DNA of 64,000 nucleotides from Escherichia coli (GTDB taxonomy: Bacteria; Pseudomonadota; Gammaproteobacteria; Enterobacterales; Enterobacteriaceae), in the NCBI RefSeq assembly GCF_013122565.1, contig NZ_CP053258.1. The stretch is one strand, 5' to 3'. A program made the position numbers and the translations under genes. Below are positions 981 to 8,434 of the stretch, one piece after another. The notes under the pieces were generated by a model, which did no database searches, was not told the origin of the DNA, and saw only the letters and a program-made list of their open reading frames with translations. Every line of letters begins with the position of its first letter. Position 1 is the first letter of the stretch.

Positions 981-1937
981 TCAGTGCTGCTGCAAAAAGT
1001 CTTCAATGTCAGCCAGTGAGGATATCCCTTCCATCGGACCTTGCCGCATTACGGCGAGCGCGCCGCTGGCATTTGCATATTGCAGTGCCTTATGTGCCGG
1101 GAAACCGGATAAGAAAAGAGTGATAAACGTTGCGCCAAAGCAGTCGCCTGCACCCGTTGGATCGATAATTTCGATATCGTGGCCTGTAACATGCTGGGCG
1201 TGTAATGTACCGTTTTTAAGCTTGTAATAGCTGGCCCCACGCTGGGCGCGTTTTATCGCCACATGTTTTACGCCGCCGTGGAGAAGATCGCTAACAATCT
1301 GTTCTTCTGACAGATTTTTGTGACGCGCGAAGAAAGGGAGTTCGCTTTCGCTGGGGATAAAAATATCCGTATATTCAATTAAATAATCGAGGGCCTGCGC
1401 CATTTCAGGAATGCTCAGCATCTCTTTGCGAATATTGGGATCGAAAGAAACGGTGCCGCCAGCCGATTTGATCGTCGTTATTGCTTTACGCATGACATCG
1501 ATCATGCGAAATGAGAACAACGATGAGCCCACAATATGGAGATGGTTACACTGTTTTAGCAGATCCTTATCAATGTGCTCAGCAGTAAACAAACCGCAGG
1601 CGCTGTTAGGGATATTAAAGACGAAATCCCGCTGCTGGGGATTTTGATAACTCACGAACGCCGTACCTGTGACGGCATTGTTCATAACATGGATCCCATC
1701 GGTAATGACACCTTCATGGCGGAGACGCTCTATAATGAGTCGGCCAAAATCATCATTACCAACACATCCAAAGAAGATGGCCCGATGGGACAGTTTTGCC
1801 ACCTGAGCAGCAAAAATTGCTGGCGCACCGCTGGGAAATGGCCCGATAAACTCCCCAGGCTGAGTGAATTTTTGATGTGGGTTGCGGGACAAAAACTCGG
1901 CCAGCAATTCGCCCATAGCGCAGATAGTTATTGTCAC
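981..1937 (-). CDS. PfkB-family carbohydrate kinase (island kinase 1)
   Basis: ORF 981..1991; probable GTG start at 1937 preceded by GAGAGGGG RBS (longest ORF would overlap the upstream regulator). Clear paralog of the kinase at 7472..8434 (shared blocks GPxPSGAPAIF, FDPNIRKEMLxIPEM, DPTGAGDCFG, ALQYANAxGALAVxRxGPMEG). Confidence 0.8.
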   Translation of the reverse strand: MTITICAMGELLAEFLSRNPHQKFTQPGEFIGPFPSGAPAIFAAQVAKLSHRAIFFGCVGNDDFGRLIIERLRHEGVITDGIHVMNNAVTGTAFVSYQNPQQRDFVFNIPNSACGLFTAEHIDKDLLKQCNHLHIVGSSLFSFRMIDVMRKAITTIKSAGGTVSFDPNIRKEMLSIPEMAQALDYLIEYTDIFIPSESELPFFARHKNLSEEQIVSDLLHGGVKHVAIKRAQRGASYYKLKNGTLHAQHVTGHDIEIIDPTGAGDCFGATFITLFLSGFPAHKALQYANASGALAVMRQGPMEGISSLADIEDFLQQH

Positions 1938-1947
1938 AAAACCCCTC

Positions 1948-2778
1948 TCATTCCTGAAGCCTTTCGCGATTGGACCAGGTAAAGCACTCATTACTGGTAT
2001 AAAGGATAACGAAATCAGCCGACTGCAATTGTTGCTGATATTGTTCGTTAATGCTGCGGCTGACGATCACATTTTCTGCCTGATGCAAATGCCCGATAGC
2101 AGCCGTTGATGGCGCAGGGTCGGCGGCAACGATAACTGTCTTATTCTGGGCATGATCGAAACAGAGCTGCCAGGCAGCGGCAAGTCTGGGAACGTTGATA
2201 TTTAAGGTACCATCAGCATCCAGAAGGCTGATTTCCAGAATGCTGTGTGTAATGGTGAAATGCTGAAGTGCCTGTTCGAGCGGTTTTCCGGCCAGTGCGG
2301 TGTCGGGGCGCAGCATTTCACTGCCAGCCAGTATTATTTCGCCATCAATAAACTGATTTGCCAGCAGCGCATGTTCGGGATCGTTGGTGATCAGACGCAG
2401 TTTTTTCACTTCGCTGAGCAAGGGAATGATCTTACGGCAGATTGTTCCATGTCCAAGAAATAGCGTGTCACGGTCGCGAATTAGCCGTGCGCAATGTCGT
2501 GCTATTTCCATTTGTTGTGCCAGAGACAATGGCGCGATCGGTTGTATCGCTTCTGGTTCAGAGGAGAGTGGTGTCGCAATAGCACCGCCAAATGATCGCT
2601 TTAAATATCCCTGTTGCTCCAGATAACTGAGATCGCCGCGGATCGTCACGCCAGAGACACCAAGTTGCGCAGATAAGTCATCAACTTTGATTTCACCCTG
2701 GGCGGCAACAATTTCTGCAATTTTTAATCTGCGTTTCAGTAGGTTAGACGATTTTCTCGGCACGTTAACACTCTTCAT
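1948..2778 (-). CDS. DeoR-family transcriptional regulator (HTH plus sugar-phosphate-binding domain)
   Basis: 276-aa ORF; N-terminal DeoR-type HTH (IAEIVAAQGEIKVDDLSAQLGVSGVTIRGDLSYLEQQGYLKR) followed by a DeoR C-terminal-like domain; directly upstream of kinase 1 on the same strand. Confidence 0.8.
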   Translation of the reverse strand: MKSVNVPRKSSNLLKRRLKIAEIVAAQGEIKVDDLSAQLGVSGVTIRGDLSYLEQQGYLKRSFGGAIATPLSSEPEAIQPIAPLSLAQQMEIARHCARLIRDRDTLFLGHGTICRKIIPLLSEVKKLRLITNDPEHALLANQFIDGEIILAGSEMLRPDTALAGKPLEQALQHFTITHSILEISLLDADGTLNINVPRLAAAWQLCFDHAQNKTVIVAADPAPSTAAIGHLHQAENVIVSRSINEQYQQQLQSADFVILYTSNECFTWSNRERLQE

Positions 2779-3119
2779 TGGCCTTTAATGCGTAACACTA
2801 TAGCCCCTTGTATTTTTCTTTGAAAGTTATCCTTCAATAATATCGACAATTCGAAAAGAAAATCATGGGTCAAAAATCGCAACGAAAATAGCTTAATACA
2901 TTGAAAAATAAATGAATATATTCATATTTATGCAGAGGTGTCATTGGTTTCACTTGCAAAGTAAAAAACAAATTAAGTTATTTTTTGTAAGTTATTTTGA
3001 TGATATTCGACATGCATCACGCTTTTTTCCGCTTTTGCTGTGCTAGTTTGCTTTCAAAATGAAAGTGAAGATTCTCTTTCTTCATTTTGTAAGGCGAACG
3101 ACAAATAACAGGAGCTGCG
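2779..3119. promoter_or_regulatory. AT-rich divergent promoter/operator region between the DeoR regulator and the aldolase-ABC operon; 14-bp perfect palindrome ATGAATATATTCAT at 2912..2925
   Basis: 341-bp AT-rich gap between divergently oriented genes; perfect palindrome seen directly; AGGAG RBS at 3108..3112 before the aldolase ATG. Confidence 0.45.
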
Positions 3120-6460: not shown

Positions 6461-7450
6461 ATGACAGAGAAAACTCTTGCCAGTCCGAAACCTTCGGAAA
6501 TTCCCATTGCAAATAATTTTAAAAAAGTCTTCAGGCAATATGGCGGTATCCTCAGTGGAATGGTGGTGTTAATCATTCTGTTCAGTTTTATTAATGACAG
6601 TTTTTTTACCGCCAATAACATTACTAATATTATTCTTCAGGTTTCGATAATTGCAATTACCGCCTATGGAATGACTTATGTACTTTTGCTTGGCGATATT
6701 GATTTATCGGTCGGTTCAACCATTGCATTGATTGGCACATTTGCTGCGCTTGGGGCTTCATGGGGAATTCCATTTATTTTATTGGTCCCATTATCCATTA
6801 TTGCAGCACTGGCTCTGGGGATGATAAATGGTGGCTTGACGGCTATAGCGGGGATCCCCTCGTTTATTGTCACCGTTGCTACTATGGGGATCTTCCGTGG
6901 TATCGCTTATATCGTGACCGATGGTATGCCCATCATGATTAAAGATGATGCCTTTCTGGCGCTGGGGAATGGAGAATTTCTCTATATACCTATTCCTATC
7001 TGGATATTAATCATCTTATTGCTGATTAACCATTTCATTCTTACTAAAACAACCTTTGGACGAAAAATTTATATCACTGGTGGTAATAAAGAAGCGGCAG
7101 TTTATTCAGGGATAAATGTCACCCGCTTGAAAATTAAAGTCTTTATGATCACAGCCGTGCTGGCAGGTATCAGCGGGATGATCCTCGCCTCACGCCTCTA
7201 TTCCGGGCAACCGAATTCCGCGTTGAGCTACGAACTGGATGCTATTGCTGCGGCTGTACTGGGAGGCACCAGCCTGAACGGTGGCTATGGAACCGTGGTG
7301 GGGACGGTGATCGGCGCATTAACCATCGGCGTTATCAATAATGGCATGAACTTAATGAATGTTCCCTATTTTTACCAGATGGTGGTTAAAGGATTAGTCA
7401 TTCTTGTAGCCGTTTATTTTGACGTAAGAAATAAAAGAAAACGCAGCTAA
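6461..7450 (+). CDS. ABC transporter permease (RbsC-like)
   Basis: 329-aa highly hydrophobic multi-TM ORF; ATG immediately follows the ATPase stop (translational coupling). Confidence 0.8.
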   Translation: MTEKTLASPKPSEIPIANNFKKVFRQYGGILSGMVVLIILFSFINDSFFTANNITNIILQVSIIAITAYGMTYVLLLGDIDLSVGSTIALIGTFAALGASWGIPFILLVPLSIIAALALGMINGGLTAIAGIPSFIVTVATMGIFRGIAYIVTDGMPIMIKDDAFLALGNGEFLYIPIPIWILIILLLINHFILTKTTFGRKIYITGGNKEAAVYSGINVTRLKIKVFMITAVLAGISGMILASRLYSGQPNSALSYELDAIAAAVLGGTSLNGGYGTVVGTVIGALTIGVINNGMNLMNVPYFYQMVVKGLVILVAVYFDVRNKRKRS

Positions 7451-7471
7451 TCATTTCAAGGAATTAATCAT

Positions 7472-8434
7472 ATGAGTAAGGTCTTCACAATTGGAGAAAT
7501 TCTGGTTGAAATTATGGCGAGTAAAATCGGCCAGCCATTTGATCAACCAGGTATCTGGAACGGCCCTTATCCCAGTGGTGCGCCCGCTATTTTTATCGAC
7601 CAGGTGACACGTCTTGGCGTTCCGTGCGGCATCATTAGCTGTGTGGGGAATGATGGCTTTGGTGATATTAATATACATCGTCTGGCTGCTGACGGTGTGG
7701 ATATCAGGGGGATTTCAGTCTTACCTCTGGAAGCCACCGGGAGTGCCTTTGTTACTTATCATAACTCTGGCGATCGCGATTTTATTTTTAATATTAAGAA
7801 TGCCGCTTGCGGTAAATTATCGGCACAGCATGTTGATGAAAATATTCTGAAGGACTGTACCCATTTTCATATTATGGGCTCATCCCTGTTTTCGTTTCAT
7901 ATGGTAGACGCAGTAAAAAAAGCGGTAACCATCGTTAAAGCAAATGGTGGCGTTATTTCTTTCGACCCTAATATTCGAAAAGAGATGCTCGATATTCCAG
8001 AAATGCGTGACGCCCTTCACTTTGTTCTTGAGTTAACGGATATCTATATGCCCAGCGAGGGCGAAGTGTTGCTCTTGTCGCCACATTCGACGCCGGAGCG
8101 TGCAATCGCTGGTTTTCTTGAAGAAGGTGTTAAAGAGGTGATTGTGAAGCGCGGCAATCAAGGTGCCAGTTACTACTCCGCGAATGAGCAGTTTCATGTG
8201 AAGAGCTATCCGGTGGAAGAAGTTGACCCGACCGGTGCGGGAGACTGCTTTGGTGGCGCGTGGATTGCCTGCCGCCAGCTAGGGTTTGACGCCCATCGGG
8301 CATTACAATATGCCAACGCCTGCGGTGCACTGGCGGTAACCCGACGTGGCCCAATGGAGGGAACGTCTCGCCTTGCGGAAATCGAAGCGTTCATCCAGCG
8401 CCATGACATGTCCATTCGGGAAGCAGCACAATGA
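7472..8434 (+). CDS. PfkB-family carbohydrate kinase (island kinase 2)
   Basis: 320-aa ORF with PfkB motifs (DPTGAGDCFG, GG..N region); AAGGA RBS; paralog of kinase 1. Confidence 0.85.
   Translation: MSKVFTIGEILVEIMASKIGQPFDQPGIWNGPYPSGAPAIFIDQVTRLGVPCGIISCVGNDGFGDINIHRLAADGVDIRGISVLPLEATGSAFVTYHNSGDRDFIFNIKNAACGKLSAQHVDENILKDCTHFHIMGSSLFSFHMVDAVKKAVTIVKANGGVISFDPNIRKEMLDIPEMRDALHFVLELTDIYMPSEGEVLLLSPHSTPERAIAGFLEEGVKEVIVKRGNQGASYYSANEQFHVKSYPVEEVDPTGAGDCFGGAWIACRQLGFDAHRALQYANACGALAVTRRGPMEGTSRLAEIEAFIQRHDMSIREAAQ

Follow-up and report, generated by a model that had tools for sequence, protein, structure and literature searches.

The 64,000-nucleotide stretch of Escherichia coli DNA analysed here (contig NZ_CP053258.1 of assembly GCF_013122565.1; hereafter the window) carries a D-tagatose utilisation island, tagK-tagR / tagYABCDE, that is inserted between yhdT and accC and that encodes two PfkB-family sugar kinases, K1 (TagK) and K2 (TagD), one in each of two divergent transcription units. 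K2 is the inducible catabolic tagatose kinase of the island, as published genetics has established, while K1 is in our reading (probability roughly 0.55) an old paralogue that belongs to a tagR-tagK module and that serves as an accessory ketohexose (tagatose) kinase made at a low and nearly constitutive level. Since published work covers the locus, both kinases, their level of identity, the structure of the operon and what K2 does, the finding itself is already known. What is added here is the two-clade origin of the kinases, the linkage between regulator and kinase across islands that use either an ATP-binding cassette (ABC) transporter or a phosphotransferase system (PTS), selection data and the non-canonical effector motifs of TagR; these points sharpen a modest question on tagK and reveal no new kind of system. 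The two kinase genes are:

981..1937, minus strand: K1 (tagK), a sugar kinase of the PfkB family in the 'reg cluster', from its Pfam match, its alignment with K2, a Shine-Dalgarno sequence and its ratio of non-synonymous to synonymous substitution rates (dN/dS); name from PMC12226905
7472..8434, plus strand: K2 (tagD), catabolic D-tagatose kinase (tagatose to tagatose-6-phosphate), from its profile match, its match to 3IQ0 and the deletion made in E. coli Nissle 1917

The initial annotation, made from the letters alone, had described these genes as diverged paralogous kinases, one in each divergent unit, rather than the products of a recent duplication, and this description stands. Both open reading frames (ORFs) are present and their products are 52% identical (161 of 311 aligned positions in BLASTP, E = 9e-118); all four of the conserved blocks quoted at the time are found in the alignment (GP[FY]PSGAPAIF, FDPNIRKEML[SD]IPEM, DPTGAGDCFG and ALQYANA[SC]GALAV[MT]R[QR]GPMEG), and the catalytic Asp of the DPTGAGD motif, which had been singled out as the residue to check, is retained in K1 as well as in K2. 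Both proteins belong to the PfkB family, with homologues that carry precomputed PF00294 matches and with a PF00294 match in K1 itself that spans residues 35-304 (E = 5.7e-45). K2 scores 414.3 bits on the NCBIfam tagatose kinase model NF049991 (TagKinase), just under its cut-off of 420, and shows 3 differences over 320 residues from the structural-genomics PDB entries 3IQ0/3K9E ('putative ribokinase II'), which have the PfkB fold. On TIGR03168, the model of the subfamily of 1-phosphofructokinase (1-PFK), LacC and PfkB, K1 and K2 reach 51.1 and 46.1 bits, both below the cut-off of 216.4 bits.

In a neighbour-joining, midpoint-rooted tree of 232 full-length sequences, the kinases fell into two deep clades, and species that have two kinases place one in each. 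Clade A (119 sequences) contains K1, the K1-type proteins of K. huaxiensis, Yersinia, Serratia and the Plautia symbiont, and also proteins of Salmonella, K. pneumoniae, Cedecea, Buttiauxella, Rahnella, Gilliamella and Orbus, while clade B (113 sequences) contains K2, the K2-type proteins of the two-kinase species and the tagatose kinases of beta-, alpha- and other gamma-proteobacteria. The identities of K1 homologues in Enterobacterales and Orbales form a continuum between 100% and about 56%; K2 is 58-61% identical to 'tagatose kinase' proteins of Burkholderiaceae (Caballeronia/Paraburkholderia), Alteromonas and alpha-proteobacteria, compared with 52% to K1. The case for diverged paralogues is thus stronger than the initial annotation supposed, and a recent tandem or segmental duplication is ruled out by the two deep clades and by the greater proximity of K2 to the Burkholderiaceae enzymes than to K1.

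When the two clades were compared column by column, the expected catalytic and sugar-pocket motifs turned out to be more than 97% conserved in both: the N-terminal GE..VE, PSGAPAI, the R-D-F..N lid segment, H..GSSL, FDPN.RKE, DPTGAGDCF and GPMEG. The residues that are invariant in both clades are, in K1 numbering, E10, E14, S36-I41, R103-D104-F105-N108, H134-S139, D166-E172, D259-F267 and G300-G304, and they include the catalytic Asp, D265, in the GAGD motif. Differences between the clades are mostly hydrophobic (L/I, F/I, L/M, A/I, F/L, L/C), together with R150/K and H225/E, and this two-clade comparison yielded no clade-specific motif change pointing to a phosphosugar substrate.

The K1 gene is also well preserved. 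Read from the GTG codon at 1937 it encodes 318 amino acids, whereas the RefSeq model starts at the ATG at 1916 and encodes 311 (936 bp) in all the E. coli records seen. The GTG start is the better supported of the two because a GAGGGG Shine-Dalgarno sequence lies 4 nucleotides (nt) upstream of it, directly past the tagR stop codon, because an identical 318-amino-acid gene call is on record (P0001), and because 13 homologues of the K1 clade start at the aligned position with M-x-[VIF]-x-I-[CA]-x-x-GELL; the RefSeq model drops the residues of the first beta-strand (TITICA). For K1, dN/dS amounts to 0.077 in the comparison with Nissle, 0.058 with strain N96 and 0.085 with Superficieibacter, values that resemble those of the other seven island genes, and K1 evolves under purifying selection. 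A full-length K1 was detected by megablast in all of the 1421 island-bearing E. coli genomes, with full length meaning that at least 80% of the gene was matched, a measure that is blind to frameshifts (one of 40 sampled matches, in ECONIH2, is 1 bp longer than the query). A decaying duplicate is ruled out by this full-length retention and by dN/dS values of 0.06-0.085. Given this selection and the retention of the motifs that characterise bona fide tagatose kinases, K1 is most likely an active ketohexose kinase; the sequence comparison points to a chemistry that would resemble that of K2, with a free ketohexose as the substrate, and not to a tagatose-6-phosphate 1-kinase.

The plus-strand unit that contains K2 comprises five further genes:

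3120..3974, plus strand: tagY, class II tagatose-1,6-bisphosphate aldolase (NCBIfam TIGR01858, 476.8 bits, cut-off 443.55)
4010..4900, plus strand: tagA, periplasmic sugar-binding protein of the ABC transporter (RbsB-like, 159.5 bits; RefSeq annotation in L001)
4961..6460, plus strand: tagB, ABC transporter ATPase with two ATP-binding cassettes (NCBIfam XylG/AraG-like, E = 1e-165; RefSeq annotation)
6461..7450, plus strand: tagC, ABC transporter permease (NCBIfam AraH/RbsC-like; RefSeq annotation)
8431..9477, plus strand: tagE, aldose-1-epimerase-like DUF4432 protein (Pfam PF14486, E = 1.6e-104)

The role of K2 comes from genetics in Nissle 1917, where an in-frame deletion of the 963-bp gene, which corresponds to K2, abolished both growth on D-tagatose and its consumption (PMC9720028). 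We infer from this phenotype that K2 is an ATP-dependent kinase that converts tagatose into tagatose-6-phosphate. The same study found that the six-gene operon alone renders K-12, B and W strains tagatose-positive, that this growth needs the host pfkA and not pfkB, and that the pathway runs from tagatose to tagatose-6-phosphate, to tagatose-1,6-bisphosphate and then to dihydroxyacetone phosphate and glyceraldehyde-3-phosphate (PMC9720028). As published genetics has shown, tagatose is taken up by the ABC transporter, K2 produces tagatose-6-phosphate, the host PfkA makes the bisphosphate and TagY cleaves it. Induction exceeded 40-fold for all six operon genes and 1000-fold for the first three of them, against about 2-fold for the regulator and K1 (PMC9720028).

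To place K1 in its genomic context, 19 genomes with a K1-clade kinase were gathered from exact-protein look-ups, a genome scan and tblastn searches with the window proteins and the Salmonella locus; the matches listed by the scan were mostly clade B loci of alpha- and beta-proteobacteria, with at least 11 K1-clade loci among them, and the rest came from the exact-protein look-ups. In all 19, a DeoR gene is found immediately upstream of the gene for the K1-clade kinase. Among eight loci, the gap between the DeoR stop and the kinase start is 10-11 nt in six (the window, L002, L004, L087, L089 and L090) and 1 nt in L088, and the two genes overlap by 1 nt in K. pneumoniae (L006). In 18 of the 19 genomes the pair and the catabolic operon are transcribed divergently, and in 17 this operon is led by a class II aldolase 68-88% identical to TagY; no aldolase match was obtained in the remaining two, Tatumella (L011) and L088. 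In L088 (8205-14468), a low-GC gammaproteobacterial metagenome contig, DeoR and K1 are convergent with a K2-permease-ATPase-binding protein array and the locus holds no aldolase.

What varies is the uptake system. Seven of the 19 genomes (E. coli, Yersinia, Enterobacter sp. ENT03, Superficieibacter, Budvicia, the metagenomic L088 and L089) have an ABC transporter with a K2-clade kinase, and the other 12 have PTS IIBC and IIA-HPr proteins with a 304-amino-acid kinase of the 1-PFK type, which is a different protein from K1 and K2: Salmonella, K. pneumoniae, Pseudocitrobacter, Cedecea, Rahnella, Erwinia endophytica, Enterobacter sp. Ag1, Tatumella, Zophobihabitans and three Gilliamella. Three of these 12 also have gat genes. 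The Salmonella/Klebsiella island (STM3251-STM3256 plus gat) illustrates this second type. Its DeoR and K1-clade pair is orthologous to that of the window (kinase 56-59%, regulator 41-42% identical) and is divergent from an operon led by a class II aldolase of 70-71% identity, but uptake is through the PTS and gives tagatose-1-phosphate, the 304-amino-acid 1-PFK-type kinase is encoded, an ABC transporter, K2 and a DUF4432 gene are all absent, and the island adjoins garD instead of accC/yhdT. The kinase and DeoR pair STM3251/STM3252 had previously been counted within the tag island STM3251-STM3256 (PMC6159554).

The tagatose clusters of alpha- and beta-proteobacteria share with the window the ABC components and K2 (52-65% identical) in the order A-B-C-kinase, and they have a TagR-like DeoR regulator whose effector motifs are non-canonical, as in the window. 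They differ in having a single clade B kinase, in the order R-(A-B-C)-kinase-GatZ-like with all genes on one strand, and in lacking an aldolase and a K1-clade gene, with tagatose-6-phosphate being epimerised to fructose-6-phosphate. Primary work on Agrobacterium and Sinorhizobium reportedly identified the GatZ-like gene as a tagatose-6-phosphate 4-epimerase. This assignment is also given in PMC9720028 for both genera, and the position of such a gene after a clade B kinase is consistent with tagatose-6-phosphate as the product of that kinase.

Islands that have lost K1 are informative as well. In Enterobacter sp. BIGb0383 (L022, 4241-12439), tagR, tagY, tagA, tagB, tagC and tagD are intact at the yhdT/accC site and there is no tagK and no tagE, while the sequence of the yhdT-side junction is conserved up to the tagR stop codon. 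The K1-clade kinase of Erwinia endophytica (L037, 10001-10992) is split into a 225-amino-acid ORF and a second ORF with the DPTGAGD motif, being either a frameshift pseudogene or a sequencing error, and tagK pseudogenes were reported in two B2 strains (PMC9720028). Together with the complementation of K-12 by the six-gene operon, these cases indicate that K1 is accessory for growth on tagatose.

The gene with which K1 is paired, and the control elements around it, are:

1948..2778, minus strand: tagR, tagatose-responsive repressor of the DeoR family, leading the tagR-tagK operon (ORF, NCBIfam AgaR, PMC12226905)
2797..2824, minus strand: Preg, promoter of tagR-tagK, TTCAAA-16 nt-TATAGT (promoter scan; hexamers identical to those of Nissle)
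3051..3069, plus strand: tagO1, predicted TagR operator overlapping the transcription start site (TSS) of the tag operon (1 mismatch to CTTTCAAAATGAAAGTAAA)

The tagO operator was defined in PMC12226905, and tagO1 is the single match with one mismatch, against a chance expectation of 0.02. In Nissle, where the Preg hexamers were described and the TSS lies 11 nt upstream of tagR, differential RNA sequencing (dRNA-seq) detected one TSS upstream of tagR, one upstream of tagY and no other in the island (PMC12226905). Co-transcription of K1 with the repressor, as initially annotated, is supported both by this sole upstream TSS and by the 10-nt gap between tagR and K1. The repressor role of TagR comes from reporter and over-expression experiments, and the same authors assumed that free tagatose is its effector (PMC12226905).

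TagR belongs to the DeoR/GlpR family: its orthologues carry the N-terminal HTH_DeoR domain PF08220 and the C-terminal DeoRC domain PF00455, its leading NCBIfam matches are DeoR-family models, the top one being AgaR at 104.7 bits, under the equivalog cut-off, and BLASTP aligns it with K-12 AgaR (E = 2e-22) with a similarity that stops near residue 190. DeoR-family repressors generally answer to sugar phosphates. The Asp and Lys of their DSSK motif (D210/K213 in LacR, D206/K209 in UlaR) are needed for the phosphosugar response, the effectors being tagatose-6-phosphate for LacR and ascorbate-6-phosphate for UlaR (PMC10991401). When 32 TagR-type regulators were aligned with K-12 AgaR and UlaR, no counterpart of DSSK was found in any of them, the position being occupied by VAADPAPST in the window TagR and by VAQRPIHDV in Salmonella, and 'LDSGTT' is replaced by FLGHGTI or FLGAGE. 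The TagR-like regulators of beta- and alpha-proteobacteria equally lack the canonical motifs, and there K1 is missing too. These absences fit the free-tagatose effector assumed by Park et al. and may still leave room for a link between K1 and TagR at the protein level. Enterobacterales TagR-type regulators share a C-terminal motif, NNEC[FL]TW, and a PDB search for a liganded TagR homologue gave none at E <= 0.001.

How the two kinases would work together can be outlined as follows. K1 would be made at a low, nearly constitutive level alongside the repressor and would provide a basal phosphorylation of free intracellular tagatose, which may prime or tune induction or may serve salvage, without being the second step of the pathway; K2 carries the inducible flux. 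The island itself appears modular, a core of regulator and K1, possibly with the aldolase, having presumably been joined to a block of ABC transporter and K2 whose nearest relatives outside Enterobacterales would be the beta- and alpha-proteobacterial tagatose clusters. Such an assembly would account for the presence of two paralogues in one island, one per transcription unit.

Several observations weigh against this picture. In Nissle, deletion of tagD left no growth and no measurable consumption of tagatose despite an intact tagK (PMC9720028), which implies that the flux of K1 on tagatose is at best very low or that its substrate differs. On the tagatose kinase model NF049991, K1 scores 346.4 bits, clearly under the cut-off, and its 'pocket' residues are assigned by family conservation, not from a liganded structure. 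The otherwise intact island of Enterobacter sp. BIGb0383 implies that K1 is dispensable, and a TagR that lacks the Asp and Lys for phosphosugar binding renders a phosphorylated inducer produced by K1 less plausible. The purpose that a free-tagatose kinase would have in PTS-type loci is not obvious either.

K1 may instead act on a different substrate, such as another ketohexose or a related sugar that enters otherwise or is made intracellularly, the specificities of the two kinases having diverged; we consider this unlikely. An identity of 52% is compatible with a changed specificity in the PfkB family, the score of K1 under the tagatose-kinase cut-off (346 against 420) and its inability to substitute for K2 in vivo go in the same direction, and the clade-specific substitutions at E29/F30, P110, R150 and H225 could contribute. 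K1 is nevertheless linked to loci with a tagatose-bisphosphate aldolase in 17 of 19 genomes (all except L011 and L088), it has in common with K2 the motifs that are invariant in both clades, and no extra transporter or enzyme that would handle another sugar accompanies it.

It is less likely still that K1 is primarily a regulatory partner of TagR, which would make the true inducer or sense the sugar by contact, in the manner of LsrK/LsrR or of Gal1/Gal3-Gal80. The invariant adjacency of regulator and kinase, with small gaps or an overlap that suggest translational coupling, the nearly constant level at which the tagR-tagK pair is expressed and the loss of the LDSGTT and DSSK effector motifs from TagR-type regulators would all suit such a partnership. 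It is, however, hard to reconcile with an L022 island that keeps tagR and all catabolic genes without K1, with the frameshifted gene of Erwinia endophytica and the pseudogenes of two B2 strains (PMC9720028), and with beta- and alpha-proteobacterial TagR homologues that lack the same motifs and work without a K1-clade kinase. In its boldest form, TagK would be a sugar sensor and not a metabolic enzyme, relieving TagR repression through an inducer or by contact, which is very doubtful; if true, it would be a bacterial counterpart of Gal1/Gal3-Gal80 conserved across ABC- and PTS-type tagatose islands.

Two other systems, lsrR-lsrK and yihV-yihW (csqR), also pair a repressor and a sugar kinase opposite a transporter and catabolic operon. 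In the lsr system the product of the kinase is the inducer, and LsrR is not a DeoR-family protein. In both of these systems, the paired kinase is the sole kinase of the pathway, whereas in the tag island a second, inducible kinase carries the flux. The linkage of yihV and csqR is described in PMC10991401.

The initial annotation had first put forward a sequential phosphorylation. K2 would then produce tagatose-6-phosphate, from which K1 would make the tagatose-1,6-bisphosphate that the aldolase cleaves, and the island would not depend on PfkA. The pathway does require a second kinase, for which the island encodes no candidate besides K1, the pfkA dependence was seen only in K-12 with a six-gene operon that lacks K1 (PMC9720028), and the tagD deletion phenotype would be compatible with two successive steps. 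We find this scheme very unlikely given the published genetics, the PTS-type loci and the motifs and profile scores of K1. The operon without K1 suffices in K-12, where the host PfkA performs the second step (PMC9720028); K1 retains all the motifs that are invariant in the clade of free-sugar kinases, without a clade-specific gain of basic residues there, and reaches 51 bits on the 1-PFK/LacC phosphosugar-kinase model whose cut-off is 216; and tagRK is induced about 2-fold, as opposed to more than 1000-fold for tagY. PTS-type loci that are already equipped with a 1-PFK-type kinase of 304 amino acids harbour K1-clade kinases too, and several of these loci showed no gat genes, in up to 9-10 kb of DNA examined on either side, that would supply tagatose-6-phosphate. 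Moreover, deletion of STM3254 in Salmonella blocks growth on galactitol, whose route is thought to pass through tagatose-6-phosphate, as well as on tagatose, despite an intact STM3251 (PMC7972205), although the annotation of STM3254 is inconsistent: tagatose-1,6-bisphosphate aldolase in the abstract of that paper and tagatose-1-phosphate kinase in its text.

An obligate K1-K2 heterodimer, another option raised initially, can be set aside as extremely improbable: dimers are common among PfkB kinases and K1 shares 52% identity with K2, but it is contradicted by the ability of K2 to support tagatose growth in K-12 without K1 (PMC9720028) and by the occurrence of each clade without the other (K1 lacking K2 in 12 of 19 genomes, K2 lacking K1 in L022 as well as in every beta- and alpha-proteobacterial locus), and induction is unequal, about 2-fold for K1 and more than 40-fold for K2 (PMC9720028).

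Compared with published loci, the island of the window is an allele of a known element. It is an eight-gene block (ORFs examined in window positions 1-14000) between two core-genome genes:

646..888, minus strand: yhdT, core-genome flank of the island
9568..10917, minus strand: accC, core-genome flank of the island

Everything that defines the E. coli tag locus is found here, namely the eight genes, the flanks, Preg, tagO1 and a 341-bp intergenic region (2779-3119). Ha et al. (2022) described eight genes between accC and yhdT in Nissle 1917, including two 'sugar kinase' genes of 963 and 936 bp that are 51% identical (PMC9720028), and Park et al. (2025) named tagK (K1), tagR, tagY, tagA, tagB, tagC, tagD (K2) and tagE, stating that the functions of the reg cluster genes remain 'unexplored' (PMC12226905). 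Our literature search on tagK did not find later functional work, and a search on STM3251/STM3252, tagK or the TagR inducer found nothing functional. The Nissle locus has the same insertion site, eight genes and order as the window (PMC9720028, PMC12226905), its proteins are 98.3-99.4% identical to those of the window, in which Preg and tagO1 are kept, and the differences between the two are only allelic. Against Nissle and other E. coli the island shows 97-99% nucleotide identity with unchanged gene order, and it is nearest to non-B2 strains, with 98.8% to an O8:H8 strain. Among 5426 complete E. coli genomes, 1421 have the island, every time at the yhdT/accC site.

This island enables roughly one in four sequenced E. 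coli strains, among them most B2 pathogens and the probiotic Nissle, to use D-tagatose for growth. D-tagatose is a food sweetener and an expression system inducible by tagatose is also based on the island, and the role of tagK matters both for induction of tagatose loci and for engineering of that system. Whatever the uptake system, tagK and the repressor are conserved together in E. coli and, beyond it, in Salmonella, Klebsiella, Yersinia and bee-gut Gilliamella.

Some minor observations concern the edges of the island and related sites. The tagE start overlaps the stop of tagD (K2) by 4 nt (8431-8434), and a 493-amino-acid database protein (P0122) in which PfkB and DUF4432 are fused presumably reflects a frameshift or read-through at this junction. 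The tagE protein had no match among the NCBIfam profiles, and the gene is not in the island versions of Yersinia, Budvicia, L089 and L022. In E. coli K-12 (L092, 3275282-3278665), the garD-adjacent site, which can be compared with that of Salmonella and Klebsiella (L004/L006), holds prlF-yhaV and the aga/kba cluster, and the K1-containing island of E. coli at accC/yhdT lies about 130 kb from it. Finally, the accB-yhdH interval forms a second variable spot beside the island: a 276-amino-acid ORF lies there (12264-13094, minus strand) with a weak match of 22 bits to an NCBIfam 'hypothetical protein' profile, the O8:H8 strain has it annotated as a hypothetical protein, and Nissle has a yedZ-like pseudogene at this place.

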